Origin: Nannocystis sp.
GTDB taxonomy: Bacteria; Myxococcota_A; Polyangia; Nannocystales; Nannocystaceae
Assembly (NCBI RefSeq): GCF_016714285.1
Contig: NZ_JADJNN010000012.1
Location: 154,040 to 218,039 of the forward strand
Direction of reading: 5' to 3'
Length of the DNA stretch: 64,000 nucleotides
Under the pieces are notes generated by a model that made no database searches, was not told where the DNA came from, and saw nothing but the letters and a program-made list of their open reading frames with translations. Positions 10,733 through 61,731 of this stretch are shown here, piece by piece; the first letter of the stretch is position 1; the number at the start of each line of letters is the position of its first letter. The translations under genes were made by a program, and so were the position numbers.

Positions 10733-12370
10733 GTGCGCCTCCTGACCCTGCTTTGCGGCTCGCTCCTCGCCACCCCGGCCCTCGCCGGCGAGACCAAGAT
10801 TGTCCTCGATGGCGCCGTCCCTGACGGCGGCCTCGACCACTTCTTCGTGCCCTTCGACGTCCCGCCCGGCACCGTCGAGATCGAGGTGCAGCACGATGAC
10901 CTCTCCGACGCCAACATCCTCGACTGGGGCCTCAACGACCCCGCGGGCTTTCGCGGCTGGGGTGGCGGCAACAGCGAGCCCGCCGTCGTCGGCCTCGCCG
11001 CCGCCTCGCGCAGCTACGTCGCCGGCCCGATCGCCGCGGGCGAGTGGCGGGTCGTCGTCGGCAAGGCGAAGCTCGTCGAGACCCCCGCGAGCTACGCCCT
11101 CACGGTGATCCTGCGCGACGCGCCGAGCCTCGCGCCGCAGCCCGAGCGCGCCCCCTACCAGCCCTTCGCGGGCCTCGGCGGCGGTCCGCGCTGGTACGCC
11201 GGCGACTTCCACGTCCACTCGCGCGAGAGCGGCGACGCCAAGCCCCCGCTCGCCGAGATCGCCGCCCTCGCGCGCAGCCGCGGCCTCGACTTCGTCGAGA
11301 TCAGCGACCATAACACCCTCACCCAGCTCGAGTTCTTCGCCGCCGCCCAGGCCGAACAGTCGGAGCTTCTGTTCGTCCCGGGCAGCGAGTTCACCACCTA
11401 CGCGGGCCACGCCAACGCGATCGGCGCGACCGCTTGGGTCGACCACAAGATCGGCCAGCCCGGCGTCACGATCGCCGCCGCAGCCGCGGCCTACGCCGCC
11501 CAGGGCGCGTTGTTCTCGATCAACCACCCGGCGCTCGACCTCGGCGACGTGTGCATCGGCTGCGCCTGGAAGCACGAGATCCCGGCCGAGCTCGCCGCCG
11601 TCGAGGTCGCAACGGGCGGGCTCGACAAGGCCGGTAAGTACCTCACCGACGATAGCATCGCCTTCTGGGACAAGCTGTGCGGCGAGGGCCGTCACCTCGC
11701 GGCGATCGGCGGCAGCGACGACCACCGCGCTGGGAAGGACCTCGGCGCCTTCGACAGCCCCGTCGGCGACCCCACCACGATGATCTACGCCGACGAGCTC
11801 AGCACCCCCGCGCTGCTCGCGGGCATCACCGCGGGTCGCACCGTGGTCAAGCTGCAGGGACCCGGCGATCCGATGCTCGAGCTCGCCGCCGATGTCTCCC
11901 CGATCGGCGACACCATCACCGCCGACGCCGTCACCCTGCAGGCCACGGTCACCGGCGCGCCCGCGGGCAGCAGCGTCCGCTTCCTCCGCAACGGCCAGGG
12001 GATGCCCCCGATCCCGATCGACGACGACCCCTTCGTCGCCAGCGTGCAGGCCACCGCGCCCGCCACCGGAGAGGACCGCTGGCGCGCCGAGGTGATCGTC
12101 GACGGCCAGCCACGCACGATCACCAGCCACCTGTGGCTGCGCGACGATCCCTCGTCCGCCCCGACCACCGGCCCCGAGCCCACCACCGGCCTCGACGCGA
12201 GCAGCGGCAGCACCGCCGCGCCCACCGGCGGCGCTCCGGGCAGCAGCAGCAGCGGTTCCCCCGAGGAGACCCCAGGCGAAACTGGCGGCTGCGCGTGTGA
12301 CCTGAAGAAAAGGCCGAGCGCCCCCATGTTGCTGGCGCTGCTCGTGCTCATCCGCCGACGCCGGGACTAG
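10733..12370 (+). CDS. PHP-domain (CehA/McbA-type) metallo-phosphoesterase with MYXO-CTERM sorting signal
   Basis: There is a signal peptide, MRLLTLLCGSLLATPALAGE. The PHP motifs YAGDFHVHSRESGD...VEISDHNT are present. The extreme C-terminus reads GGCACDLKKRPSAPMLLALLVLIRRRRD, a Cys motif plus hydrophobic stretch plus Arg tail, which is the MYXO-CTERM pattern. Confidence 0.7.
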   Translation: MRLLTLLCGSLLATPALAGETKIVLDGAVPDGGLDHFFVPFDVPPGTVEIEVQHDDLSDANILDWGLNDPAGFRGWGGGNSEPAVVGLAAASRSYVAGPIAAGEWRVVVGKAKLVETPASYALTVILRDAPSLAPQPERAPYQPFAGLGGGPRWYAGDFHVHSRESGDAKPPLAEIAALARSRGLDFVEISDHNTLTQLEFFAAAQAEQSELLFVPGSEFTTYAGHANAIGATAWVDHKIGQPGVTIAAAAAAYAAQGALFSINHPALDLGDVCIGCAWKHEIPAELAAVEVATGGLDKAGKYLTDDSIAFWDKLCGEGRHLAAIGGSDDHRAGKDLGAFDSPVGDPTTMIYADELSTPALLAGITAGRTVVKLQGPGDPMLELAADVSPIGDTITADAVTLQATVTGAPAGSSVRFLRNGQGMPPIPIDDDPFVASVQATAPATGEDRWRAEVIVDGQPRTITSHLWLRDDPSSAPTTGPEPTTGLDASSGSTAAPTGGAPGSSSSGSPEETPGETGGCACDLKKRPSAPMLLALLVLIRRRRD

Positions 12371-12536
12371 CTGGCCCGAGAGACAGCCTCACACGAAGGG
12401 CGAGCGGTACGGCGGCCGGCGCCGGGTGTTCGTCCCGAGCTCGGCGTAGCTGGCCCGAGAGACAGCCTCACACGAAGGGCGAGCGGTACGGCGGCCGGCG
12501 CGGGGTGTTCGTCCCGAGCTCGGCGTAGCTGGCCCG
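12369..12536. repeat. 79-bp direct tandem duplication (2 copies plus about 10 bp of a third, 1 mismatch)
   Basis: The unit agctggcccgagagacagcctcacacgaagggcgagcggtacggcggccggcgc[c/g]gggtgttcgtcccgagctcggcgt occurs at 12369-12447 and 12448-12526. Copy 2 is the last ~22 codons plus the stop of tsaB. Copy 1 fills the tsaB/PHP intergenic space. Confidence 0.85.
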
Positions 12537-26467: not shown

Positions 26468-26680
26468 ATGCGCACCGCATTTCACCTCGTCCTCGGTCTG
26501 TCCCTCCTGAGCCTCGGCGCCTGCGCCGAGCAGCCCGGCAAGAAGAAGGAAGAGACCAAGGCCGAGACCAAGACCGACAGCAAGACCGACAAGCCCGACG
26601 GCACCAAGACCGAGACCAAGACCGAGACCAAGGTTGAGACCAAGGTCGAGACCCCGCCGACCCCGCCGCCGGCCACCTGA
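26468..26680 (+). CDS. small secreted lipoprotein with Lys/Thr/Glu-rich repetitive tail
   Basis: MRTAFHLVLGLSLLSLGACAE has a lipobox. It is followed by KKKEETKAETKTDSKTDKPDGTKTETKTETKVETKVETPPTPPPAT. Its stop overlaps the next ATG (TGATG). Confidence 0.5.
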   Translation: MRTAFHLVLGLSLLSLGACAEQPGKKKEETKAETKTDSKTDKPDGTKTETKTETKVETKVETPPTPPPAT

Positions 26681-34950: not shown

Positions 34951-35664
34951 ATGAACAGCGCTGAGGTCCAAGGAAACCACACCTGGGGGAAGTTCTCCGC
35001 CTTCCGCGTGCTCGGCGATCACGAGCCCATGCCCGGCTTTCGCCTCGTCATGCAGTTCGCCCCGCGGCCCGAGGGGTTGACTCGATTGCTCGAGCAGCGC
35101 GCCCGCCACAGCGACACCCTCGACTCCGAGCTCGCCCGCCTCACGGTGCGCGCCGGCATCGGCCTGCTGCAGTCGCACAACGTCTCCTTCGCCTACGCCA
35201 ACGCCGAGGAGGTCGTCGCCCTCATCCGCCCCGACGCCGTCGCCCGCATGGGCTCGTCGCTCGCCGTCTATGAGCAGCTGCTGTCGATGTACTCGGCGCG
35301 CCTCGCTGTCCTGCTCGGCGAGGAGCTCCACGTCCACGGCCACATCTTCGAGTTCCCCGACCTCGGCATCGCCCGCCGGGCCTTCGTCGCCGCCCAGGAG
35401 TGGGCCGAGGAGGGCACGCCCCTGCGCTCCGCCAGGCGCCTCGGCTCGCAGCTGCGCGGCCAGGGCCAGGGCTTCCACGCCGGCAGCATCGACTCCGTCG
35501 AGGGTCAGATGACCACCCTGCGCGGCGCCGGCGTCGACCTCGACGCCCTCCCGCACTGGTGGTGGCGCGGCATCGCGGCGCGCTTCCGCAGCGACGGCGG
35601 CGTCGAGCTCTACGACGACGTCCCGCACGGGGCCGAGCTCGCCGCGCTCGTCTCGGACGTCTAG
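34951..35664 (+). CDS. hypothetical protein (possible Thg1/TLP-like fold, divergent)
   Basis: From MNSAEVQGNHTWGKF. Segments AYANAEEVVALI, RMGSSLAVYEQLLSMYSA and HVHGHIFEFPD weakly parallel the Thg1 motifs AYGQSDEYSFVF, RRASKFMTHVASQFASS and PGFDGRVVVYP, but with substituted acidic residues. This is a low-confidence recollection. Confidence 0.3.
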   Translation: MNSAEVQGNHTWGKFSAFRVLGDHEPMPGFRLVMQFAPRPEGLTRLLEQRARHSDTLDSELARLTVRAGIGLLQSHNVSFAYANAEEVVALIRPDAVARMGSSLAVYEQLLSMYSARLAVLLGEELHVHGHIFEFPDLGIARRAFVAAQEWAEEGTPLRSARRLGSQLRGQGQGFHAGSIDSVEGQMTTLRGAGVDLDALPHWWWRGIAARFRSDGGVELYDDVPHGAELAALVSDV

Positions 35665-36869: not shown

Positions 36870-36881
36870 CGTCCCGCTTGA
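36870..36881 (+). promoter_or_regulatory. candidate heat-shock (-35-like) element CGTCCCGCTTGA upstream of hrcA
   Basis: An identical 11-mer CGTCCCGCTTG recurs upstream of grpE (38043-38053). It resembles the sigma32-type extended -35 (tCcCCCTTGAA). Confidence 0.3.
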
Positions 36882-36901
36882 TCGCGCTACCAAGGGCGAC
36901 G

Positions 36902-38038
36902 GTGGCAGAGCTGAGTCCCCGACGACAGCGGATCTTGTTCGCGCTGTGTCGCGACTACATCGTGACCGGTCGCCCGGTCGCGTCGGCCAACCTCACCCAG
37001 CACCTCGAGTGCTCCTCGGCCACGATCCGCAACGAGCTCGCCGCGCTCGAGGAGCACGGCCTCCTGCAGCAGCCGCACCACTCCGCCGGGCGCCTGCCCA
37101 CCGCCGCGGGCATGCGCCTCTACGTGCGCTCGCTCGGCGCCCTCCCGCCGCTGCGCGCCGAGGTCCGCCGCGCCGTCGACGTCTCCTTCGGCGAGGTCGT
37201 CCAGGGCCCCGAGGGCATGCGCGCCGCGGTCCGCGTGCTCAGCGAGCTGGTCGGCTGCGTCGCCGTCAGCTTCGTCGGCGAGGGCCGCCGCGGCGTGATG
37301 CGCCAGGTCGACCTCGTCCCCGTGCAAGGTCATCGCGCGCTGGTCGTCGTCGGCCTCGCCGACGGCGCCACCCACGTGCACCCGGTCAACCTCGACCCCA
37401 GCCTCGTCGGCGGGCTCGCCGGCGATAAGGGCGGCGCCTCGCTGCTGCGCGTCCAGGAGCGCCTGCGCGGCCTGTGCATCGGCAAGACCCTCGCCGAGGC
37501 CCGCGCCGATCTCACGCGCATGTGGGCCGAGCAAGAGGCCCACCTCGATCGCCTGCTCGCCGAGAGCCTGCGCCTCGGCCTGTGGCTGTGCAGCGCCGCC
37601 GCCCTCGATCCGCTGTGGGTCCAGATCGCCGGCCAGAAGCTGCTCGCCGGCCACAGCGGCACCACCCTCGCGCAGATCCTCAGCCTCTTCGACGACTATC
37701 ACAGCCTCGCGGAGCTGCTGTGTCAGCTGCTCCCGGAGCAGGTCGGCTCGGCCCGCGCCGAGGTCCACGTCGCCGGCGAGGTCCCGGGCACGGCTGGCCC
37801 CGCGGGCGCAGCAGGCCCCGCGGGCGCAGCAGGGCCCGGCGGTCTGTTCATCCGCGACGAGCCGCTCGTGCTCGCGGGGCTTAGCCTGGTCGGCTGTCGC
37901 CTCCACTCGACCGACGACGACGGCCGCAAGACCACCGCCGTCGCGCTGCTGGGCCCCGATCACATGGATTACGAGGCCGTCATTCCTCTGGTAGAGTACG
38001 CCGCCCAGGCACTGGCGGCGCGTACAAGCGAGGGATAG
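36902..38038 (+). CDS. hrcA: heat-inducible transcription repressor HrcA
   Basis: The likely start is a GTG: MAELSPRRQRILFALCRDYIVTGRPVASANL... (HrcA N-terminal wHTH). The ORF could also start at the TTG at 36878. Confidence 0.75.
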   Translation: MAELSPRRQRILFALCRDYIVTGRPVASANLTQHLECSSATIRNELAALEEHGLLQQPHHSAGRLPTAAGMRLYVRSLGALPPLRAEVRRAVDVSFGEVVQGPEGMRAAVRVLSELVGCVAVSFVGEGRRGVMRQVDLVPVQGHRALVVVGLADGATHVHPVNLDPSLVGGLAGDKGGASLLRVQERLRGLCIGKTLAEARADLTRMWAEQEAHLDRLLAESLRLGLWLCSAAALDPLWVQIAGQKLLAGHSGTTLAQILSLFDDYHSLAELLCQLLPEQVGSARAEVHVAGEVPGTAGPAGAAGPAGAAGPGGLFIRDEPLVLAGLSLVGCRLHSTDDDGRKTTAVALLGPDHMDYEAVIPLVEYAAQALAARTSEG

Positions 38039-38088: not shown

Positions 38089-38640
38089 ATGAGCCAAGCA
38101 AGCAACGACCCCGACCAAAGCCCCGACCACTCGGCCGCCGGCATGGCGCTCCTGGACGCCGAGAAGCTCGCCCTGGCCGAGCAGGAGGTCGCGAGCCTCA
38201 AGGACAAGTGGCTCCGCGCCGTCGCCGATCACGAGAACTTCAAGAAGCGCACCCGTCGCGAGATCGACGACGCCGTGTTCCGCGCCCGCCAGGACCTGCT
38301 CAGCAGCTTCTTCCCGACCGCCGACAACCTCGACCGCGCGCTCGAGCTGGCCCGCGGCAACGAGCAGCTGTTCAAGGGCATCGAGATGGTCGCCCACGAG
38401 TTTCGCGGCGCGCTCGCCCGCCACGGCATCGAGCCCGTGCCCACCGTTGGGCACCCCTTCGACCCGGCCCTGCACGAGGCCCTCTCGCAGGTCGACTCCG
38501 CCGACCACGCCCCTGGCACCGTCACCTTCGAGTTCGAACGCGGCTACCGCCAGGGCGATCGCCTCCTGCGCCCCGCCCGCGTGGTGATCGCCGGCCCCGG
38601 CTCGACTGGCTCGCCTGGCAAGGCCGGCCCCGCGGCGTGA
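38089..38640 (+). CDS. grpE: nucleotide exchange factor GrpE
   Basis: It has a coiled-coil N-terminus (KDKWLRAVADHENFKKRTRRE) and the C-terminal beta domain. Confidence 0.85.
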   Translation: MSQASNDPDQSPDHSAAGMALLDAEKLALAEQEVASLKDKWLRAVADHENFKKRTRREIDDAVFRARQDLLSSFFPTADNLDRALELARGNEQLFKGIEMVAHEFRGALARHGIEPVPTVGHPFDPALHEALSQVDSADHAPGTVTFEFERGYRQGDRLLRPARVVIAGPGSTGSPGKAGPAA

Positions 38641-38660: not shown

Positions 38661-40526
38661 ATGACGAGCAAGCCGGGCCCGATCCTCGGCATCGACCTGG
38701 GGACCACCAACTCCTGCGTCGCCGTGATGGACGGCGGCGAGGCGCGCGTGCTCGCCAACCGCGAGGGCAGCCGCACCACCCCGAGCGTCGTCGCCTTCGT
38801 CGGCGACGACATCCTCGTCGGCGAGGCCGCCCGCCAGCGCGCCAGCAAAGATCCAGCCGCCACCGTGTTCGCCGCCAAGCGCCTCATCGGCCGCAAGTTC
38901 GCCGAGGTCGAGGCCGTGCGCCGCGGGCTGCCTTACACCGTCGTCGCCGCGGCCAACGGCGACGCCTGGGCCGAAGTCCACGGCCGTCGCCGCTCACCCA
39001 GCCAGATCTCCGCGCAGGTGCTCGCGTACTTGAAGGACGCCGCCGCCGACGCCCTCGGCGAGCCGGTCACCCGCGCCATCATCACCGTCCCCGCCTACTT
39101 CGACGACGCCCAGCGCCAGGCCACCCGCGACGCCGGCACCATCGCCGGCCTCCGCGTCGAACGCATCCTCAGCGAGCCCACCGCCGCCGCCCTCGCTTAC
39201 GGCCTCCATGACCGCAAGGACAGGCCGCCCCAGATCGTCGCCGTCTACGACCTCGGCGGCGGCACCTTCGACGTCTCCCTGCTCGAGCTGCGCAGCGGCG
39301 CCTTCGAGGTCCTCGCCACCGCCGGCGACTCGCAGCTCGGCGGCGAGGACTTCGACAGCGCCGTCGTCGATCACATCGCCGACCTGTTCCAGCGCGAGCA
39401 CGGCGTCGATCTGCGCAGCGATCGCGCCGCCCTCGCGCGCCTGCGTGACGCCGCCCAGCGGGCCAAGCACGAGCTCAGCTGGGCCCTCGCCACCGAGCTG
39501 AACCTGCCCTTCATCGCCGCCGTCGACGGCCAGCCGCTGCACCTCGCGCTCACGCTCACCCGCCGCGAACTCGAGCGCCTCACGCGGCCGCTGATCGATC
39601 GCAGCCTCGGCCCCTGTCGCCGCGTCCTCGCCGACGCCGGCCTGCGCCGCGACCAGGTCGAGGAGGTCCTGCTGGTCGGCGGCCAGACCCGCATGCCCGC
39701 GGTCGTAGAGGCCGTGGCCGAGTGCTTCGGCCGCCAGCCCAGCACCGCCCACAACCCCGACGAGGTCGTGGCGATCGGCGCCGCGATCCAGGGCGCCGTC
39801 CTGGCCGGCGAGCTCGCCGACCTCGTCCTGCTCGACGTCGTCCCGCTCAGCATCGGCGTCGAGACCCAGGGCGGCGTGTTCTCGGTGCTGATCCCCCGCA
39901 ACACCCCGATCCCCACCCGCCGCACCGAGACCTTCAGCACCAGCGTCGACAACCAATCGATCGTGCACGTGCACGTGCTCCAGGGTCTGCGCGAGATGGC
40001 CGAGGACAACCGCAGCATCGCCCGCCTGCAGCTCACCGACATCCCGCCCGCCCCGCGCGGCGCCCCGCAGATCCAGGTCCGCTTCGAGCTCGACGCCGAC
40101 GCGATCCTCCGCGTCAGCGCCCGCGAGCTGCTCAGCGGCAAGGAGGCCGCGATCGTCGCCCAGCCCGCCTCCGGCCTGACCCGCGCCGAGGTCCAGGCGC
40201 TCGCCCAGGAGGCCGAGGACGCCCGCCAGCACGACCTCTCCCGCCGCGCCATCGTCGAGACGCGCAACCGCTGCGAGACCCTCGCCTACGCCTGCGAGCG
40301 CGCCCTCGAGGGCTACGGCGAGGGCCTCCCCGCCGCCGTCCGCGAGTCGGTGCAGCGCGACGTCGCGGCCCTGCGCGGGCTGCTCGGTGACCATGCGGGC
40401 GCCCGCGGCGGCCCCGAGCTGCAAGCCGCCTTCGCCGCGCTCGAGCGATCGTCCCGCCAGATCTACGCCGCGATGCTCGGCGACGCCGAGACACCCGCCC
40501 TGCTCGCCGAGGGGTCCCGCGAATGA
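38661..40526 (+). CDS. dnaK: molecular chaperone DnaK (Hsp70)
   Basis: The start is the internal [29 protein letters not shown] and the remaining Hsp70 signatures are present. Upstream ORF sequence is junk. Confidence 0.9.
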
Positions 40527-40700
40527 GCTACCAGGATCACTACGCCGTCCTCGGCGACGCCGAGACACCCGCCCTGCTCGCCGAGGGGTCCCGCGAATGA
40601 GCTACCAGGATCACCACGCCGTCCTCGGCGAAACACCCGCCCTGCTCGCCGAGGGGTCCCGCGAATGAGCTACCAGGATCACTACGCCGTCCTCGGCGTC
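40467..40700. repeat. tandem triplication (74-bp and 68-bp units) of the dnaK-stop/dnaJ-start junction
   Basis: gaATGAgctaccaggatcac occurs three times, with ATGs at 40523, 40597 and 40665. Each copy carries the dnaK C-terminal codons ...(D)[13 protein letters not shown] fused behind the dnaJ N-terminal MSYQDH(Y/H)AVLG. Copy 3 has a 6-bp deletion. Confidence 0.85.
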
Positions 40701-41771
40701 GCCGCCAACGCATCGCAGGACGAGGTCAAGGCCGCCTACCGCCGCCTCGCCCTCGCCACGCACCCCGATCGCCACCCCGACGACCCCGACGCCGAGGCCC
40801 GCTTCCGCGCCATCTCCACCGCCTACGCCGTCCTCAGCGACCCGGCCCAGCGCGCCCGCTACGACACCCAGCGCCTCCTCCCCGAGACCCTGATCGGCGG
40901 GCAGGGCGGGCAGGGGGTCAGCCTCCAGACCGCGAAGGACCTGCTCGCCGCCGTCGTCGGCGACGTGTTCGGCCGCCAGCGCCGTGAGCGTCGCCGCGGC
41001 CGCGACATCCGCTACACCCTCACCGTCGAGCTCGCCCAGGCCGTCCTCGGCGGCGAGCACGAGATCAACTTCGAGGCCGCCGGCGCCTGCAGCACCTGCG
41101 GCGGCACCGGGGCCCGCCCCGCCGGGCGCCCGCCCATCACCTGTCCCTTGTGCCAGGGTCGCGGCGAGGTCAAGGGCGAGGGCTTTCTGCGCCGCTACAG
41201 CCCGTGCGGCCGCTGCGGCGGCGTCGGCATGATCCAGCAAGATCCCTGCGCGCCCTGCTCCGGCCGCGGCTCGCGGCGGGAGAAGCGGAGCTTCCACGTG
41301 CGCCTCCCGCCCGGCACCGAGTCGGGCGTCGAGAAGCTCGTCGAGGGCCAGGGCGAGCCCGGTCAATTCGGCGGCGCACCCGGGCACCTGCGGGTCACCA
41401 TCAACGTCCGCCCGCACCCGTGGCTGCGCCGCGAGGGCCTCGACATCCTCGGCGAGCTCTACGTAAGCCTCGGCGAGGCCGCCCGCGGCGGCAAGCTCCC
41501 GGTGCCCACCCTCACCGGGGTGGCGATGGTCGAGATCCCCGCCGGCGTGACCACCGGCGCCAAGCTGCGCCTGCGTGGCAAGGGCGCCCCCGCCGAGGCC
41601 GGACGTCCCGGCGATCAGATCGTCACCGTCGTGATCGAGACCCCGCGGATCACCACCGCCACCGGCGCCCCCGCGACCCACCTCGCCAGCGCCCTCGACG
41701 CCCTCGAGCGCGCCTTCGAGGCCGATCCCCAGCTGCTCCCGCGTCGCGCCGCCCAGCGCAGCGGCGCCTGA
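40665..41771 (+). CDS. dnaJ: molecular chaperone DnaJ
   Basis: The J-domain (YAVLGV...HPD), a G-rich region, four CxxCxGxG zinc-finger repeats and the C-terminal domains are present. Confidence 0.9.
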   Translation: MSYQDHYAVLGVAANASQDEVKAAYRRLALATHPDRHPDDPDAEARFRAISTAYAVLSDPAQRARYDTQRLLPETLIGGQGGQGVSLQTAKDLLAAVVGDVFGRQRRERRRGRDIRYTLTVELAQAVLGGEHEINFEAAGACSTCGGTGARPAGRPPITCPLCQGRGEVKGEGFLRRYSPCGRCGGVGMIQQDPCAPCSGRGSRREKRSFHVRLPPGTESGVEKLVEGQGEPGQFGGAPGHLRVTINVRPHPWLRREGLDILGELYVSLGEAARGGKLPVPTLTGVAMVEIPAGVTTGAKLRLRGKGAPAEAGRPGDQIVTVVIETPRITTATGAPATHLASALDALERAFEADPQLLPRRAAQRSGA

Positions 41772-41812: not shown

Positions 41813-41863
41813 CCGCGTTAGCGCTGGCGCGGCGCCATGCTTTGAGGCACCTTGCTCGCACGC

Positions 41864-42244
41864 ATGGCAACGGGTGACGCGAACAAGCAGCTGCAGGAGC
41901 TCGAGCAGCTGGCGAGCAACCTCGGCGTGCGCGTCAGCTACGACGCCATGACGGGCCTCAGCCAGGGCGGCGGCGGCCTGTGCAAGGTGCGCGGCGAGTG
42001 GCGCATCATCATGGACAAGCGGCTCAAGGCGGTGGAGCGCATGCAGGTGATCTCCGACGCCCTGCGCTCACGCTTCGACACCGAGGCCCACTTCGTCTCG
42101 CCGCAGGTCCGCAGCATGCTCGCGCCAATGGCTGGCATCCCGGTTGGCATCGGGGCTGGCATCGGGGCTGGCATCGGGGCTGGCATCCCGGCTGGCATCC
42201 CGGCTGGCATCCCGGTTGGCGTCCCGGCACCTGCGGGCACCTGA
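41864..42244 (+). CDS. hypothetical protein with C-terminal (GIGA/GIPA)n repeat
   Basis: MATGDANKQLQELEQLASNLGVRVSYDAMTGL...CKVRGEWRIIMDKRL is followed by GIPVGIGAGIGAGIGAGIPAGIPAGIPVGVP, encoded by 12-nt tandem repeats (42126-42225). Confidence 0.35.
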   Translation: MATGDANKQLQELEQLASNLGVRVSYDAMTGLSQGGGGLCKVRGEWRIIMDKRLKAVERMQVISDALRSRFDTEAHFVSPQVRSMLAPMAGIPVGIGAGIGAGIGAGIPAGIPAGIPVGVPAPAGT

Positions 42245-43015: not shown

Positions 43016-45925
43016 TTGAATCAGATCACCCAATTCGGCCCTTACAAGCTGATCGAGCGCATCAGCGTGGGTGGCATGGCAGAGGTGTACAAGGCCACAG
43101 AGCACGGCGTGGAGGGCTTCGAACGCACCGTCGCGGTCAAGCGGATCTTGCCCCACATCGCGGAGGATGACGAGTTCATCACGATGTTCAAGGACGAGGC
43201 CAAGATCGCCGGCCAGCTCCAGCACGGGAACATCGCCCAGATCTACAACCTCGGGCAGCAGGGCGACAGCTTCTACATCGCCCTCGAGTACGTCGCCGGC
43301 AAGGACCTGCGCAACATCTTCACCCGCTGCCAGCAGCAGGGGCGCGCCATGCCGATCGCCCAGGCCTGCTTCATCGTGATGAAGGTCGGCGAGGGCCTCG
43401 ACTACGCCCACAACAAGCGCGACAAGCACGGCCGCCACCTCAACATCGTCCACCGCGACGTGAGCCCGCCGAACGTGCTCGTGTCCTACGAGGGCGAGGT
43501 CAAGCTCATCGACTTCGGCGTCGCCAAGGCCGCCGGTCGCGTCAGCCGCACCCAGGCCGGCATCCTCAAGGGCAAGTTCGGCTACATGTCCCCGGAGCAG
43601 GTCCGCGGCATGCCGCTCGACCGCCGCAGCGACGTGTTCTCGCTCGGCGTCGTCCTCTTCGAGACCCTCGTCGGTCAGCGCCTGTTCCAGGGCGACACCG
43701 ACTTCGCGACCCTCGAGATGGTGCGCACCGTCGACGTGCCCGCCCCGAGCAGCAAGAACCCGGAGATCCCCAAGGACCTCGAGGCCATCATCATGAAGGC
43801 CCTCTCCGGCGAGCCGGAGACCCGCTACCAGACGGCGATGGAGCTCCACGACGACCTCCAAGCCTTCATGTTCCAGCACGGCATGTTCTACAGCCGCAAG
43901 GACCTCGCCGCGTGGATGCGCAAGCAGTACGCCCGCGAGATCGAGCTGGAGAAGGACAAGAACACCGGCAAGTCGGCGCCCCCGCGGCCCGCACCGCCGG
44001 GCGCCGCCGCTGGTCGCAAGCCCACGCTGAGCGGTGTGCCGGCCCCCAAGGCCGCGCCGCCCGCGGCCCCACCCACGCCCGCAGCCGGCGCCCCGCGCCC
44101 GCCGCCCGCGGTCAAGCCGCCGCCCGGCTCGCCCGGCCCCAAGCCGCCCGCCGTTGGTCTGCCCAAGCCCGGCGCCGGCGATGCCCTCGAGCCCACCGAA
44201 GAGCAGCTCGCCGCCGCCCGCAAGCGCAGCAAGACCATGCTCATGTCGCCGTCGAATCGGCCGACGACGCTCAAGCCCGGGGCAACCGGCGCCGTGCCGA
44301 CGATCCCCGCTGGCCTCGCAGCGATGCCGAAGCCCGCCGATCCGCTCAAGCAGACGATCGTCCCCGGCGGCGCCCCGCCGCCCGCAGTCGTCGCGCCCAA
44401 GATCGCATCGGTGCCGCTGCACCCGCCGACGCAGGCGCCCCGGCCCACCGTCGCCCCGGTCGCCAAGGCTGCCCCGTCCAGCGAGGACGGCCCCGATCTC
44501 GACTGGGACGACGACGAGCTCGAGACCAAACTCTTCGACGAGCCCGGTGGCCCGGGTGCCCCCGGTGCCCCTGCCATGGCCGCCTCCGTGCCGAGCGCCG
44601 CGCGCAGCAAGGTCAAGCCCGAGGAGGCCGGTTCGATCGCGCCGCTCATCCCGAAGGTCGGGCAGATCGAGGCCGACGAGGACGATGGCCCAGCCACCGT
44701 GCAGCTGCCGCCCAACGCGGCTGCCGTCATCATCCAGCCGCTCATGGCCGCTGCAGCCGCTGCAGCTGCGGCCGCTCAGTCGATGCCCGGCGGCTCGATG
44801 CCCGGCGGCTCGATGCCCGGCGGCGCCATGCCCGGCGCCTCGATGTCCGGCGGCGCCATGCCCTCCGCCCCCGGCTTCCCGCAGCAGTCGAGCCCCGGTC
44901 TGCCTCAGCCCCCGCGCCGCGGCCAGCAGACGATGCCCACGCCGGAGCTCGCCGACGTCGAGGACACAGAGACTGGCAAGCGCAAGCCCAACTTCCTGCT
45001 CATCGGCGGGATCGCGGCGGGTGTGCTCCTGCTGATCGTCGTCATCGCCATGTTCTCCGGCGGCGGCGACAAGCCCGGCAAGGTCGCCAGCAACGACTCC
45101 GGCACGCCAGCTGCGGCCAGCGGCGGGGCTGTGCCAGGGCCGACGGTCGGCGGCCTCCAGATCGAGGTCTCGCCCGCGGACGCCAAGATCCTGGTCGACG
45201 GCGCCGAGGTCCCCGGCAGCGGCTCCTCGCGCGTGGTCAACAACCTCGCGGTCGGCAAGCACAAGCTCACCGTCAACTTCGGCGACGCCTATCTCCCCTT
45301 CGAGCAGGAGGTCGACGTCGTCGCCAGTCAGCTGGCCAACTTCCCGGTCAAGCTCAGCGTCCGCGACGTCACCGTCACGGTCACCACCGAGCCGGCAGAG
45401 GCCGCCCTCAAGCTCATCGAGGGCCAGAACCCGCCGACCGTCGTCGGCAAGGGCGGCGACAGCTTCAAGGTCCAGCGCAAACCCGGCGCGACCTACAAGC
45501 TGCTCGCCGAGCTCGCCGGCTACGATCCCAGCGAGATCCCGCTCACCTTCACCGGTGGCCCCAACGACAGCGCCAAGCTCGTGCTCATCAAGAGCAAGGC
45601 CGGCACGCCGCCGACGCCACCCGAGACCACGCCGCCGATCCCGACCCCGCCCCCCGGCGAGGTCACGCCGCCCAAGCCCAAGGATCCGAAGCCCAAGCAG
45701 CCGCCGAAGGCCAAGACCGCCGAGCTCAAGATCGGCTCGGGCCCCGGCCTCCCGCCCGCGACTGTGTGGGTCGACGGCCAGAAGCAGCCCAAGCCCACGC
45801 CAGTCACCGTGATGGTCACCGCCGGCGCCCACACGGTGAAGTGGAAGTATCCCGACGGCAAGACCACCACCAAGAAGGTCACCGCCGCGGACAAGTCGAG
45901 CCAGGTCATCAAGGGCACCCTCTAA
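43016..45925 (+). CDS. Hanks-type Ser/Thr protein kinase with Pro-rich linker, TM helix and C-terminal PEGA domain
   Basis: The start is a TTG, the only in-frame start, with GGAG 6 nt upstream. It has VGGMAEVYKA, VAVKRIL, HRDVSPPN, DFG and SPEQ, then ~300 aa Pro/Ala-rich with GSMPGG repeats. The TM is LLIGGIAAGVLLLIVVIAMF. The PEGA-like segment reads LQIEVSPADAKILVDGAEVPGSGSSRVVNNLAVGKHKLTVNFGDAY. Confidence 0.85.
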   Translation: MNQITQFGPYKLIERISVGGMAEVYKATEHGVEGFERTVAVKRILPHIAEDDEFITMFKDEAKIAGQLQHGNIAQIYNLGQQGDSFYIALEYVAGKDLRNIFTRCQQQGRAMPIAQACFIVMKVGEGLDYAHNKRDKHGRHLNIVHRDVSPPNVLVSYEGEVKLIDFGVAKAAGRVSRTQAGILKGKFGYMSPEQVRGMPLDRRSDVFSLGVVLFETLVGQRLFQGDTDFATLEMVRTVDVPAPSSKNPEIPKDLEAIIMKALSGEPETRYQTAMELHDDLQAFMFQHGMFYSRKDLAAWMRKQYAREIELEKDKNTGKSAPPRPAPPGAAAGRKPTLSGVPAPKAAPPAAPPTPAAGAPRPPPAVKPPPGSPGPKPPAVGLPKPGAGDALEPTEEQLAAARKRSKTMLMSPSNRPTTLKPGATGAVPTIPAGLAAMPKPADPLKQTIVPGGAPPPAVVAPKIASVPLHPPTQAPRPTVAPVAKAAPSSEDGPDLDWDDDELETKLFDEPGGPGAPGAPAMAASVPSAARSKVKPEEAGSIAPLIPKVGQIEADEDDGPATVQLPPNAAAVIIQPLMAAAAAAAAAAQSMPGGSMPGGSMPGGAMPGASMSGGAMPSAPGFPQQSSPGLPQPPRRGQQTMPTPELADVEDTETGKRKPNFLLIGGIAAGVLLLIVVIAMFSGGGDKPGKVASNDSGTPAAASGGAVPGPTVGGLQIEVSPADAKILVDGAEVPGSGSSRVVNNLAVGKHKLTVNFGDAYLPFEQEVDVVASQLANFPVKLSVRDVTVTVTTEPAEAALKLIEGQNPPTVVGKGGDSFKVQRKPGATYKLLAELAGYDPSEIPLTFTGGPNDSAKLVLIKSKAGTPPTPPETTPPIPTPPPGEVTPPKPKDPKPKQPPKAKTAELKIGSGPGLPPATVWVDGQKQPKPTPVTVMVTAGAHTVKWKYPDGKTTTKKVTAADKSSQVIKGTL

Positions 45926-47545: not shown

Positions 47546-49965
47546 GCAGCGTCGACCAGAACGCCTCCGAGTTCATCGCCGAGGCGCAGGAGGTCATCGA
47601 GACCTTCTCGCGCACGCTGCTCGAGCTCGAGGCCCAGTCGCGCACCGGCTCCACCGACCCGGACCTCCTCAACGCCGCGTTCCGGGCGATCCACAGCCTC
47701 AAGGGCCTCGCCGGCCTGTTCGGCGCCGCCGCGATCGGCGGCCTCAGCCACACCCTCGAGAGCACCCTCGACAGCCTCCGCCTCGGCAAGCTCGGCCTCG
47801 GCCGCGTCGTGCTCGACGTCCTGTTCGAGGCGATCGAGATGTTCGGTCGCCTGCTCACCCCGCGCGACGAGACCGACGAGCCCGAGCCCGACATCGAGCC
47901 GATCCTCGCCCGCCTGCGCGCCCTCACCGAGCAGGAGGCCCCGGAGCTGCCGCAGGACAACCTCGAGTGGGTCGGCGAGGCGATCCTCAGCGTGCTCACC
48001 GAGTACGAGGAGCACCGCCTGCGGGAGAACATCCGCTCCGGCCGCGGCCTGTTCCGCGTCCACGCGAAGTTCGACATCCTCGCCATCGACGTCGGCATCG
48101 AGCAGCTCAAGGACAAGATGAAGCTCTACGGGGAGGTCATCACCTACCTCCCCAGCGCCGACGGATCGTCCGACGACGCGATCGAGCTCGACATCCTGCT
48201 CGGCTCCAAGAGCAGCCTCGCCGAGCTGTCCTCCGCCCTCGCCGTCGGCGACGTCACCGTCCACCGCCTCGCCGCCGCCGAGGCCAGCTCCGCCATCACC
48301 CCCGCGCCCGCACACAAGCCGGCGAGCCCCGCCCCGGCGAGCCCCGCCCCGGCGAGCCCCGCCCCGGGCCGGGCCGCCGCTCCCCCGCCGACCCGGACCG
48401 CCGCCGCCTCGGCGCCACCGCCCCGGCCCGCCGCCGCCCCGCCGCAGACACCCGCGCGCCGCGACCCCGAGCCCGCGCCAGCCCCCGCGCGCGCCCCCGT
48501 CGCCCGCGGCCCCGTCACGCCCGCACCGTCTCGCCGCGAGCCCGCGCCCGTGCCGCTCGGCGACGACGCCCCGGTCGAGGCCGCCAGCTCCGAGACCAGC
48601 CTGCGCAGCCTCAGCCAGACGGTCCGCGTCGACCTCCGTCGCCTCGACCTCCTGATGAACCTCGTCGGCGAGCTCGGCCTCGTCCAGAACAACCTCGCCG
48701 GCGTGCTCGAGGCCGTGCGCCAGCTCGACCACAGCGCCGACGTCTCGCGCGAGCTCTCGGTCCAGATCCGCGACATGACCCGCAAGCTCGCGCTGCTGCA
48801 GCAGTGCATCCTCGACGTCCGCATGGTCCCGATCGGCCAGGTCTTCGACAAGCTGGCCCGCGTCGTCCGCAAGCTCAGCCGCGACCTCGACAAGGAGATC
48901 CGCCTCGTCATCTCCGGCGCCGAGACCGTGCTCGACAAGCTCATCGTCGAGGAGCTCAGCGACCCGCTGATGCACATGATCCGCAACTGCATCGACCACG
49001 GCATCGAGCCCGCGGGCGAGCGGGCCCGCCTCGGCAAGCAGCCGGCCGGACGCATTGAACTCCGCGCCTTCCAGAAGGGCAACCGCGTCGTCATCGAGGT
49101 CGAGGACGACGGCGGCGGCATCGACTGGCTGCGCATCCGCGACATGGGCGTGCGCCGCGGCCTCGTCAGCGCCGAGGAGGCCGTCTCCATGACCCCCTCC
49201 GAGGCGATCAACCTGATCTTCTCCCCCGGCTTCTCGATCCGCGAGCACGCCACCGAGGTCAGCGGCCGCGGCGTCGGCATGGACATCGTCAAGACCAACA
49301 TCGCCAAGCTCAGCGGCATGATCGACGTCACCACCGAGGTCGGCCGCGGCACCAAGTTCGCGATCACGCTGCCCGTCACCCTGGCGATCATCCAGGCCCT
49401 CGTCATCCAGAGCGCCGGCCACACCTTCTGCATCCCGCTCAACTCGGTGCTCGAGTCGATCATGGTCGAGGTCCGCGAGATCAGCACCATCGAGGGCCAC
49501 GAGGTCATCATCCTCAACAAGCGGACCCTGCCGCTGCTCTACCTCTCGCGCCTGTTCGCCCTGCGCCCGCTGTCCCGCACCTACCGCGATCCCAACCGCG
49601 TCTACGTTGTGGTCGTTGGGCTCGCGCAGCACCGTGTCGGCCTCGTCGTCGACGAGCTGCTCGGCCAGCAAGACGTCGTCATCAAGCCGCTCGGCAGCGC
49701 CGTGCGCAACGTCCCCGGCATCGCCGGCGCCACCGAGCTCGGGGCCAACCGCACGGTCCTGCTCCTCGACGTCGGCCGCCTCGTCGACGAGGGCGTGCGC
49801 CAGGCCGACGCTGCCATCTCCATCGGTGGCTCGCTCGGTGGCTCGCTCGGCGGCTCGGGGGGCGGCAACCTCGGCGGCGCGAGCGTGGGCGGCAACTCCG
49901 GCTTCGGCGGCCTGTCCGGCGGCACCCAGTCCTCGCATCTCGGAGGTACGACGCATGTCCGTTGA
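47542..49965 (+). CDS. cheA: chemotaxis histidine kinase CheA
   Basis: The TTG start overlaps the cheY stop. It has the HPt domain (AFRAIHSLKGLAG), a Pro/Ala-rich linker with 3 x 15-bp PASPA repeats (48318-48368), a dimerisation domain, HATPase (NCIDHGIE...GRGVGMDIV) and a C-terminal CheW-like domain. Confidence 0.85.
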   Translation: MSSVDQNASEFIAEAQEVIETFSRTLLELEAQSRTGSTDPDLLNAAFRAIHSLKGLAGLFGAAAIGGLSHTLESTLDSLRLGKLGLGRVVLDVLFEAIEMFGRLLTPRDETDEPEPDIEPILARLRALTEQEAPELPQDNLEWVGEAILSVLTEYEEHRLRENIRSGRGLFRVHAKFDILAIDVGIEQLKDKMKLYGEVITYLPSADGSSDDAIELDILLGSKSSLAELSSALAVGDVTVHRLAAAEASSAITPAPAHKPASPAPASPAPASPAPGRAAAPPPTRTAAASAPPPRPAAAPPQTPARRDPEPAPAPARAPVARGPVTPAPSRREPAPVPLGDDAPVEAASSETSLRSLSQTVRVDLRRLDLLMNLVGELGLVQNNLAGVLEAVRQLDHSADVSRELSVQIRDMTRKLALLQQCILDVRMVPIGQVFDKLARVVRKLSRDLDKEIRLVISGAETVLDKLIVEELSDPLMHMIRNCIDHGIEPAGERARLGKQPAGRIELRAFQKGNRVVIEVEDDGGGIDWLRIRDMGVRRGLVSAEEAVSMTPSEAINLIFSPGFSIREHATEVSGRGVGMDIVKTNIAKLSGMIDVTTEVGRGTKFAITLPVTLAIIQALVIQSAGHTFCIPLNSVLESIMVEVREISTIEGHEVIILNKRTLPLLYLSRLFALRPLSRTYRDPNRVYVVVVGLAQHRVGLVVDELLGQQDVVIKPLGSAVRNVPGIAGATELGANRTVLLLDVGRLVDEGVRQADAAISIGGSLGGSLGGSGGGNLGGASVGGNSGFGGLSGGTQSSHLGGTTHVR

Positions 49966-60741: not shown

Positions 60742-61731
60742 ATGCAAACGCGCCTACTTACGCCATTCCTCGCCGCGCTCACGCTCGCCCCGATCGCCTG
60801 TGGTGACGACAAGGGCGGCTCGACCAGCAGCGAGACGGACGCCGCCGGCTCGACCACCGGCACGAGCCCGGCGACCACCGACGGTCCGACGCCGACGACC
60901 ACCGACGGGCCGACGCCGTCGACCACCGACGAGCCGCCGCCGACCACCACCGTCGATCCAGACCCGACGACCACCGGCGACGGCACCACCGGCGAGCCGG
61001 CCGACTGCGCCGCTCCGGCCGACGCGGCCGACGAGGACGGCGACGGCGTGGCCAACATGGCCGACAACTGCCGCTGCGACGCCAACCCGAACCAGCTCGA
61101 CTTCGACGGCAACTCGGTCGGCAACGTCTGCGACGTCCCGCTCAAGTTCACCATCGCCGACGGCACGCCGCCCGAGTTCAACAAGCTCGACACCACCGCC
61201 GAGGCCGAGAAGACCCTGAAGTGCAACTTCCCGGTGAGCCTCATCGTGCTAAACGGCGACGTGCAGGTGACCCTCGACGACGCCGGCACCGCCAAGATCT
61301 GGGCCGCCAAGCTCAACTTCGCCGACACCCCCGAGCTGACCTGCGACCTGACCCTCGTCAAGGTCAAGCTCAAGATCCAGCAGTTCTTCGCCGACGGCCC
61401 CGACAAATTCGTGGTCGGCTTCCCCTTCACCCTCCCCGATCACGACGCGGGCAGCATCAGCGGCCAGACCGACAGCCCGCAGAGCATCCTCGTCAGCGGC
61501 ATCATCAACGTCACCGAGTCCAACAACGAGGGGCTCGCACCGACCGGCGAGAACCCGCTGGAGATGGTCCCCGGCGCCTTCCCGACCGGCCTCGCCTCGG
61601 TCGTCAACAAGGGCGAGCAGGTGTCGGTGGTCTTCGACGACAGCGACTCCATCGTTTTCATGCAGACCACGATGAGCGGCATCAACATCAAGCTCACCGG
61701 CCTCAAGGGCACCCTGCGCCTCAAGATGTGA
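60742..61731 (+). CDS. secreted lipoprotein with thrombospondin type-3-like calcium-binding repeat
   Basis: MQTRLLTPFLAALTLAPIACGDD has a lipobox. A Thr/Pro linker is followed by DEDGDGVANMADNCRCDANPNQLDFDGNSVGNVCD (the TSP3 pattern D.DGDG..D..DNC...NP.Q.D.D), then a beta-rich C-domain. Confidence 0.55.
   Translation: MQTRLLTPFLAALTLAPIACGDDKGGSTSSETDAAGSTTGTSPATTDGPTPTTTDGPTPSTTDEPPPTTTVDPDPTTTGDGTTGEPADCAAPADAADEDGDGVANMADNCRCDANPNQLDFDGNSVGNVCDVPLKFTIADGTPPEFNKLDTTAEAEKTLKCNFPVSLIVLNGDVQVTLDDAGTAKIWAAKLNFADTPELTCDLTLVKVKLKIQQFFADGPDKFVVGFPFTLPDHDAGSISGQTDSPQSILVSGIINVTESNNEGLAPTGENPLEMVPGAFPTGLASVVNKGEQVSVVFDDSDSIVFMQTTMSGINIKLTGLKGTLRLKM

Follow-up and report, generated by a model that had tools for sequence, protein, structure and literature searches.

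How an operon copes with a gene junction that is present three times over is the question raised by a locus in a Nannocystis sp. genome (NCBI RefSeq assembly GCF_016714285.1). The sequence analysed is a 64,000-nucleotide stretch of contig NZ_JADJNN010000012.1 (positions 154,040 to 218,039 of the forward strand), hereafter called the window, which has a G+C content of 71.6% and carries an hrcA-grpE-dnaK-dnaJ operon at 36.9-41.8 kb, as confirmed by Pfam matches. In this operon the overlap between the dnaK stop codon and the dnaJ start codon, ATGA, recurs in tandem together with the adjoining ends of both genes. A first-pass annotation, made from the sequence alone, had noted the repeat and proposed that ribosomes leaving dnaK reinitiate on two short chimeric open reading frames (ORFs) before reaching dnaJ, with an assembly artefact as the alternative.

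This paper describes the structure of the repeat, its occurrence in sister genomes and relatives, its origin, and its predicted consequences for translation. The account considered likely is that of a genuine, lineage-specific triplication generated by microhomology-mediated tandem duplication (MTD), with a putative ribosome relay through the mini-ORFs and a net effect that would be near-neutral or amount to a modest reduction of the dnaK-coupled synthesis of DnaJ.

Results

Structure of the repeated dnaK-dnaJ junction

Tandem Repeats Finder detected the repeat as the top-scoring one in the entire window, and a 50-nt core (ACACCC...GGATCAC) was found exactly three times with 0 mismatches, where 0 occurrences were expected in 100 shuffles. 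The string GAATGAGCTACCAGGATCAC is likewise present three times, placing the ATG of the ATGA at 40523, 40597 and 40665. The array and the threefold string bear out the three copies with periods of 74 and 68 nt that had been reported at first; the span given at that time (40467-40700) was right in location, and the exact limits are 40476-40704. The two extra units of 74 and 68 nt add up to an insertion of 142 nt (3n+1). The last half of the repeat unit is supplied by the dnaK tail, of which it comprises the last 15 codons, and the dnaJ-derived head consists of 11 codons rather than the approximately 8 of the first-pass annotation. The two predicted chimeric mini-ORFs of 25 and 23 codons were recovered ahead of dnaJ as reading frames at 40523-40600 and 40597-40668, and each copy of the junction was found to retain not only the ATGA but also a GAGGGG motif 8 nt upstream of the ATG. 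The features of the array are the following:

40476-40704, + strand: whole tandem array (Tandem Repeats Finder: 3.2 copies, period 74 (or 68), 91% matches, score 402)
40476-40490, + strand: dnaK-side microhomology arm CTCGGCGACGCC, inside the near-palindrome CTCGGCGACGCCGAG, encoding L-G-D-A-E (read from the sequence)
40509-40526, + strand: junction 1, with GAGGGG at 40509-14, an 8-nt spacer and ATGA at 40523-26; the dnaK stop overlaps the mini-ORF1 start
40523-40596, + strand: extra unit 1, 74 nt
40523-40600, + strand: mini-ORF1, 25 aa; dnaJ codons 1-11 fused in frame to the last 14 codons of dnaK plus the stop
40550-40561, + strand: joint 1 (CTCGGCG/ACGCC, that is GTCCTCGGCG/ACGCCGAG), where the dnaJ head meets the dnaK tail inside the microhomology arm
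40583-40600, + strand: junction 2, with GAGGGG at 40583-88 and ATGA at 40597-40600; the mini-ORF1 stop overlaps the mini-ORF2 start
40597-40664, + strand: extra unit 2, 68 nt, with TAC>CAC (Y7H) at 40615 and a joint 6 nt shorter
40597-40668, + strand: mini-ORF2, 23 aa, head MSYQDHHAVLG
40624-40637, + strand: joint 2 (CTCGGCGAAACACC), which is joint 1 minus 6 nt (codons D-A), plus GAG>GAA, synonymous in the mini-ORF
40651-40668, + strand: junction 3, with GAGGGG at 40651-56 and ATGA at 40665-68; the mini-ORF2 stop overlaps the true dnaJ start
40692-40703, + strand: dnaJ-side microhomology arm CTCGGCGTCGCC, encoding L-G-V-A, its codon phase matching that of the dnaK arm

Occurrence of the array in other assemblies

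Comparison of the dnaK-dnaJ junction among sister genomes, one of the checks that had been suggested for this locus, revealed that the triplication recurs in two other metagenome-assembled genomes (MAGs) of Nannocystis. One of these (L020/L028, GCA_016717175.1, contig JADKFZ010000003.1) has the same three junctions, again spaced 74 and 68 nt apart. Over 7.1 kb, 22 substitutions (0.3%) and one 24-nt indel separate it from the window; within the array the two differ only at 40541, where codon 7 of unit 1 is CAC in place of TAC. The other (L029, GCA_964267895.1), which stems from a different submission, has the same 74+68 structure with the shortened second joint. It is separated from the window by 88 substitutions in 7.5 kb (1.2%), and two substitutions in the array are private to it (40651, G>A; 40657, T>G). 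Joint 2 is identical in all three triplicated MAGs. Position 40541 is T in the window and in L029 and C in L020, a pattern that suggests either conversion from unit 2 or a polishing ambiguity.

With respect to sequencing technology, JADJ accessions in the supplement of Singleton et al. (PMC8012365) are CANU assemblies of Nanopore reads polished with Illumina data. Judged by its accession block alone (JADKFZ), L020 would be part of the same set, and if it is, the 216-nt array would fit within single Nanopore reads.

Two further observations concern L029. It has single-base deletions at the equivalents of window positions 36878, 38930 and 40912, which split dnaK into calls of 123 and 500 aa and shorten the dnaJ call to 268 aa; these deletions look like long-read consensus errors, not pseudogenes. 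Moreover, the substitutions between L029 and the window are strongly clustered (35070-35496 and 39131-39235) with long identical stretches between them, one example being approximately 30 changes plus a 6-nt indel in a stretch of about 100 nt in dnaK, a distribution that suggests recombination tracts among strains.

Relatives with a single junction

Every relative examined at 96% nucleotide identity or less has one junction. This holds for the closest contigs (L021-L024, comprising three Logan contigs and one ENA contig, and the JGI contig L027; 94-96%), of which L021-L024 encode a DnaJ that is 97.6% identical to that of the window, as well as for L025 (96%), L013-L019 and L026 (approximately 87%), L003 (84%), and L001 and L002 (approximately 80%). 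Enhygromyxa and Plesiocystis also have a single junction, with ordinary intergenic spacers. A metagenome scan for the junction core retrieved two JGI contigs (L026 and L027), both single-copy, and no triplicated or twofold alleles. A collapsed repeat in the single-copy contigs is unlikely, because contigs from different samples and assemblers (Logan, MEGAHIT k141, JGI) run through the junction. Going by these alignments, the triplication is lineage-specific and would postdate the split from the relatives at about 95% identity and predate the divergence of the three MAGs.

The dnaK 3' ends of L001-L003, L010, L013, L021, L025 and L026 were compared as well. Across the Nannocystaceae the C-terminal tail of DnaK is hypervariable after the conserved ...QIYxAML, ranging from 8 to approximately 39 residues, and in some relatives it contains tandem repeats of its own ((GDGT)x5 in L010, STDR-like in L026). 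Within the close subclade the last dnaK codons (EGSRE*), which bear the Shine-Dalgarno (SD)-like motif and the ATGA, are conserved.

Origin of the array

In the nearest single-copy relatives (L021, L023 and L027) the dnaK-side arm starts 47 nt upstream of the ATG and the dnaJ-side arm 27 nt downstream of it, a distance of 74 nt. Their dnaK reads ...ATG CTC GGC GAC GCC GAG... and, 74 nt on, their dnaJ reads ...GTC CTC GGC GTC GCC GCC..., the two arms sharing 7 nt exactly and 11/12 overall. In the window the extra units join the dnaJ head to the dnaK tail within this 7-nt direct repeat. Head-to-tail copies, arms that lie one unit apart in the single-copy state, and a joint inside the arm are the marks of MTD, and all three were found. 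That ctcggcgacgcc in dnaK and ctcggcgtcgcc in dnaJ gave rise to the array through recombination, as initially proposed, or through slippage, is upheld by the 74-nt distance between the arms in L021-L024 and L027 and by the position of the joints within the arm.

The following sequence of events is proposed. In the ancestor, the end of dnaK and the start of dnaJ would have formed a single ATGA overlap, flanked by 12-nt arms at a distance of exactly 74 nt. A nascent strand whose end lay in the dnaJ arm would then have paired anew with the dnaK arm and recopied the 74 nt, after which the duplicate would have expanded to a second extra copy, and one copy would later have lost 6 nt and gained point changes. 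Replication slippage or template switching would be the underlying mechanism. Unit 2 differs from unit 1 by the loss of six bases and by GAG>GAA and TAC>CAC, and the lost bases lie within CTCGGCG-ACGCCG-AGACA, between CGA...CGA repeats. These changes predate the divergence of the MAGs, because they are common to all three.

The arms are related in a second manner. The reverse complement of CTCGGCGACGCCGAG is CTCGGCGTCGCCGAG, which is nearly equal to the dnaJ arm, so that the arms can also pair with each other. The minimum-energy fold of the single-copy relatives contains a 13-bp G+C stem with a 6-bp extension that encloses the SD motif and the ATGA (1219-1323 in L021, with equivalents in L023 and L027); the window counterparts of the pairing arms are 40476-40490 and 40692-40704. 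Hairpins can facilitate strand misalignment in palindrome-assisted slippage, and the predicted arm hairpin, which would draw the two arms close to each other, may plausibly have promoted slippage here. In the single-copy relatives the same predicted stem may enforce the coupling of dnaJ translation to that of dnaK.

MTD has been described as the dominant source of bacterial tandem duplications and of their expansion to at least three copies (bioRxiv 10.64898/2026.02.28.708716). The window contains a second tandem duplication, at 12368-12536 (79 nt, 2.1 copies, 98% identical), which has 11-nt arms (TAGCTGGCCCG) and the same MTD signature as the dnaK/dnaJ array. It sits between convergent genes: TAG is the stop of a + strand ORF at 10733-12370 with a weak PHP-domain match, and a - strand TsaB/TsaD-like ORF has its stop at 12468-12470, inside the second copy of the 79-nt repeat. 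CTCGGCG occurs at 2.8 per kb in this genome, and in view of this abundance and of the second duplication MTD is evidently ordinary in it.

Reading frames created by the array

Both arms encode Leu-Gly-(Asp/Val)-Ala, with CTC GGC G in equal phase in dnaK and dnaJ, and the chimeric ORFs are automatically in frame because the arms share their codon phase in both genes. Each chimeric ORF ends at a copy of the dnaK TGA that overlaps a copy of the dnaJ ATG, and both unit lengths (74 and 68) leave a remainder of 2 when divided by 3, as a chain of ATGA overlaps requires. The intactness of the mini-ORFs is hence a by-product of the in-phase arms and not evidence of selection.

The changes seen in the mini-ORF frames comprise three non-synonymous substitutions (Y7H, E>K and S>A), one synonymous substitution, and one deletion of two codons. 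The peptides display no sign of constraint in these comparisons and are probably throw-away products. A function of the mini-peptides themselves was considered and judged unlikely, as all they have of the J-domain is its first 11 residues, which lack the HPD motif, joined to the hypervariable DnaK tail, with mostly non-synonymous changes. If an indel broke the frame, either the unit would be fused to DnaJ or ribosomes would run on for 106 codons across the start of dnaJ. As variants of this kind would probably be eliminated regardless of what the array does, the multiple-of-three length of the observed indel is weak evidence at best.

The insertion also altered the relative frame of the two genes, since the dnaK stop and the dnaJ start are now both in frame 0 and the ancestral dnaJ is in the -1 frame. 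A single UGA, and no other stop, separates dnaK from dnaJ in the shared frame:

40527-40664, + strand: inter-gene linker frame, 46 sense codons (ATRITTPSS...RRGVPR; by translation)

In a hypothetical DnaK-DnaJ read-through product the linker peptide would include ATRITTPSSATPR...

Translation signals and the proposed relay

Each of the three ATGs is embedded in an identical context of 40 nt upstream and 33 nt downstream. The GAGGGG located 8 nt upstream of each has a predicted anti-SD duplex energy of -7.5 kcal/mol against a background of -3.1 +/- 2.5, which is the strongest in the operon, these energies being calculated with an assumed canonical anti-SD. The predicted energy required to open the region from -18 to +6 is 10.5, 11.2 and 11.4 kcal/mol for the three starts and 10.65 kcal/mol for a single-copy junction constructed in silico. 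The predicted change in start-site accessibility is thereby at most about 0.8 kcal/mol, which lends no support to a structural on/off effect, and the modelled context of the dnaJ start is essentially that of the ancestral state.

Overlaps of -4 nt are usually tightly coupled, with an efficiency that varies by gene pair, and coupling is most efficient at spacings of -4 to +3 nt (PMC6728339, PMC12548453). Such an overlap, ATGA, is present at all three junctions, each preceded by an SD-like motif that lies in the upstream ORF's 3' end. Ribosomes that end dnaK would thus be expected to reinitiate at 40523, stop after 25 codons, reinitiate at 40597, stop again, and reinitiate at dnaJ, and each ATG would also be able to recruit ribosomes de novo. 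If ribosomes reinitiate at each junction with efficiency p, initiate de novo at rate d, and pass through dnaK with flux F(K), the input into DnaJ synthesis would change from pF(K) + d to p^3F(K) + d(1 + p + p^2). The dnaK-coupled share would fall by a factor p^2 (p to p^3) and the local share would rise slightly; whether the net effect is positive or negative, and how large it is, would be set by p and d. A ribosome relay of this kind through the mini-ORFs is plausible on the signals present.

Operon and window context

The operon consists of the following genes:

36878-38038, + strand: hrcA ORF (Pfam HrcA); equivalent of the sister-MAG gene call, 36902-38038
38089-38640, + strand: grpE (Pfam GrpE)
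38661-40526, + strand: dnaK (Hsp70), 621 aa, stop TGA at 40524-40526 (ORF translation; Pfam HSP70, 3e-209)
40665-41771, + strand: dnaJ, 368 aa (Pfam DnaJ, DnaJ_CXXCXGXG and DnaJ_C)

The sister MAG L020/L028 has the same 621-aa gene call for dnaK, and the DnaJ of the window matches NCBI MBK7827768.1, which belongs to a Nannocystis sp. MAG, at 100% identity; by their predicted translations, both proteins are unaltered by the duplication. The match of HrcA to its Pfam family is modest (2.9e-16). The CIRCE operator (TTAGCACTC-N9-GAGTGCTAA) had 0 matches at up to 3 mismatches across the 64-kb window, despite the presence of hrcA at the head of the operon. Rfam searches at E<=1 over 36.5-42.5 kb returned sub-threshold noise only, and no sigma-70-like promoters or intrinsic terminators were found in 36.0-42.6 kb. 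With these Rfam, promoter and terminator searches empty, a riboswitch, attenuator or internal promoter is unsupported as an explanation of the locus.

Several shorter repeats occur elsewhere in the window. A 12-nt coding repeat (GGCTGGCATCCC, 8.2 copies, 42130-42228) that encodes (G/P)AGI repeats lies just downstream of dnaJ in a + strand ORF at 41852-42244 (130 aa, no Pfam match). Its copy number varies between sister MAGs, the window having 24 nt (two units, 42145-42168) more than L020. Further tandem repeats with periods of 12-36 nt are located at 4577-4680, 26552-26653, 37785-37838, 44780-44863, 48319-48445 and 60868-60980, and apparently encode Pro/Gly/Ala-rich low-complexity segments; one such short-period repeat is in hrcA (18-nt unit, AGPAGA repeats).

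Discussion

Four other explanations of the locus were weighed against that of a genuine MTD triplication with a near-neutral or modest effect. In the artefact raised by the first-pass annotation, the genome would truly have a single junction and the tandem copies would have been made during assembly or polishing. The window does derive from a MAG, the T/C difference at 40541 could be a mis-assignment between near-identical units in polishing, and L029 clearly has single-base indel errors elsewhere. Nevertheless, the same 74+68 structure is present in three assemblies, and the novel joint CTCGGCGAAACACC that forms part of it must be present in reads; assemblers tend to collapse tandem repeats rather than create diverged ones; and the 216-nt array is far below Nanopore read length. 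The three MAGs were separately assembled in at least two projects and have private substitutions, and because they share the novel joint while each has its own point differences, an artefact is ruled out for practical purposes and retains a very small probability. Even less credible, to the point of being negligible, is the insertion at the dnaJ start codon of a mobile intergenic repeat resembling the interspersed repetitive units of mycobacteria (MIRUs), which would have brought its own coupled ORF. The architecture is strikingly like that of the senX3-regX3 MIRUs (units of 77/77/53 bp, with ORFs coupled at -4 nt), but every base of the unit is accounted for by the dnaK tail and dnaJ head of the same locus, the 64-kb window holds only the 3 local matches at up to 3 mismatches, and the metagenome matches to the junction core are only to single-copy junctions before the same dnaJ start (L026 and L027). 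A MIRU-type mobile element was rejected on these grounds, the unit being non-dispersed in the window and the metagenome scan and built from the flanking genes. Alternatively, the insertion could matter by placing both genes in one frame, leaky decoding of the UGA then yielding a 1036-aa DnaK-linker-DnaJ fusion. Both genes do share frame 0, and between them lie 46 sense codons without a stop, but an in-frame arrangement has a prior of 1/3, open frames are the norm at 72% GC, and a read-through-promoting signal was not identified. The linker is moreover an out-of-frame reading of the repeat that is Pro/Arg-rich and has no sign of constraint, and the L029 substitutions fall within it. Such a fusion is therefore highly improbable, and the frame coincidence is regarded as a curiosity, not a finding.

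The remaining explanation holds that the relay is a selected device, attenuating or buffering the flow of ribosomes from the highly translated dnaK to dnaJ and so lowering the DnaJ:DnaK ratio. All three ATGA and SD-like motifs are intact in three genomes, the length of the sole indel within the array is divisible by 3, the copy number is invariant over 0.3-1.2% divergence despite the tendency of such repeats to collapse, and coupling is known to work at an efficiency below 1 that depends on context. These points are countered by several others. The intact in-frame mini-ORFs carry no weight, as stated above; a single indel is in frame in approximately 1/3 of cases by chance, and more often at the triplet-periodic CGA-CGC-CGA; the sample consists of three genomes of one lineage; and nothing similar is present at the other Nannocystaceae junctions examined. 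Furthermore, dnaJ has its own strong SD-like motif and an unchanged predicted accessibility, by which de novo initiation may make the relay irrelevant, and L029 has altered the SD region of the true dnaJ start without compensation elsewhere. A selected device of this type is accordingly judged unlikely, if clearly less so than the three preceding explanations. The wider proposal, in which the junction would be kept by selection as a relay or attenuator, possibly with low-level read-through fusion, and would show the de novo birth of MIRU-like chains, is rated slightly lower again. Overall, the array is probably a tolerated, near-neutral by-product, with only a minor chance of a selected regulatory role.

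Several considerations weigh against this preferred account. Long reads may underlie all three of the triplicated assemblies, and most of the single-copy relatives are short-read assemblies from a different sublineage. The translation of the mini-ORFs, their effect on DnaJ, and the near-neutrality are deduced for an uncultured organism. MTD alleles revert at approximately 1e-4 in Schizosaccharomyces pombe (PMC8639346), and 101-bp tandem repeats delete frequently and independently of RecA in Escherichia coli (PMC8378479). Tandem repeats being prone to collapse, the occurrence of exactly three junctions and the same diverged middle unit in 3/3 genomes at 0.3-1.2% divergence is mildly notable; such persistence is somewhat above the expectation for a neutral unstable repeat and leaves room for selection. 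It at least implies that the array brings no appreciable disadvantage compared with the products of its collapse, but falls short of demonstrating positive selection, the sample being three genomes with local genealogies that may be shallow.

The locus can be regarded as a natural experiment on translational coupling, with one ATGA junction in close relatives and three in series here, at an initiation site that is otherwise identical. It indicates that a stop/start overlap with its Shine-Dalgarno motif can act as a self-contained module, the duplication of which is tolerated because each copy regenerates a legal ORF, and this may explain the origin of MIRU-like coupled intergenic repeats. Should the relay measurably change DnaJ output, it would represent a simple and evolvable retuning of chaperone/co-chaperone stoichiometry; should it be without effect, the locus would provide a well-documented case of an ordinary mutation (MTD) landing harmlessly. 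A narrow literature search found no published description of a duplicated stop/start overlap. The mutation itself is textbook MTD, and the MTD-born, non-mobile, MIRU-like chain of coupled mini-ORFs is a new variant.

Comparison with known systems

The array shares with other MTDs (PMC8639346; bioRxiv 10.64898/2026.02.28.708716) the head-to-tail copies, the arms one unit apart, the joint in the arm, and the expansion from two to three copies. It differs in that the duplicated segment is a stop/start overlap, so that consecutive coupled ORFs result instead of an insertion within a gene or a simple intergenic repeat, in that the arms are also reverse complements of each other (13-bp stem), and in that the array appears stable in three diverged genomes, whereas MTDs are typically rapidly reversible.

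With termination-reinitiation at ATGA (PMC6728339, PMC10666635, PMC12548453) the locus has in common the -4 overlap, the SD-like motif in the upstream 3' end, and predicted structure near the start, but here three junctions stand in series, two of them ending ORFs of 25 and 23 codons. Synthetic bicistronic designs, or 'delivery' upstream ORFs (PMC12548453), likewise employ a short functionless ORF to deliver the ribosome to an overlapping start. In contrast to these, the arrangement described here is natural, is doubled, and lies between genes that were already coupled, so that it adds steps rather than creating coupling.

The senX3-regX3 MIRU/variable-number tandem repeat units were reportedly described by Supply and co-workers in 1997. 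In Mycobacterium tuberculosis this locus has three 77-bp units, or two of 77 bp and one of 53 bp, with ORFs coupled at -4 nt, an arrangement thought to permit insertion with minimal effect on the downstream gene (PMC12548453, PMC4213456). The Nannocystis array likewise consists of tandem units of 50-100 nt between operon genes, each with a short ORF that overlaps its neighbours. The two loci both have 2-3 tandem units of approximately 50-80 nt between co-transcribed genes, ORFs that overlap their neighbours at -4 nt and could relay translation, and one shorter unit (77/77/53 there, 74/68 here). They differ in that MIRUs are dispersed, apparently mobile, unrelated to their flanks and strain-variable in copy number, whereas the unit described here derives from the flanking gene ends, is confined to one locus in the window and the metagenome scan, and has an equal copy number in 3/3 genomes (three genomes only). 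By analogy, the array resembles a MIRU array more closely in architecture than it does any other known system, reached by a de novo, non-mobile route and not as a member of that family.

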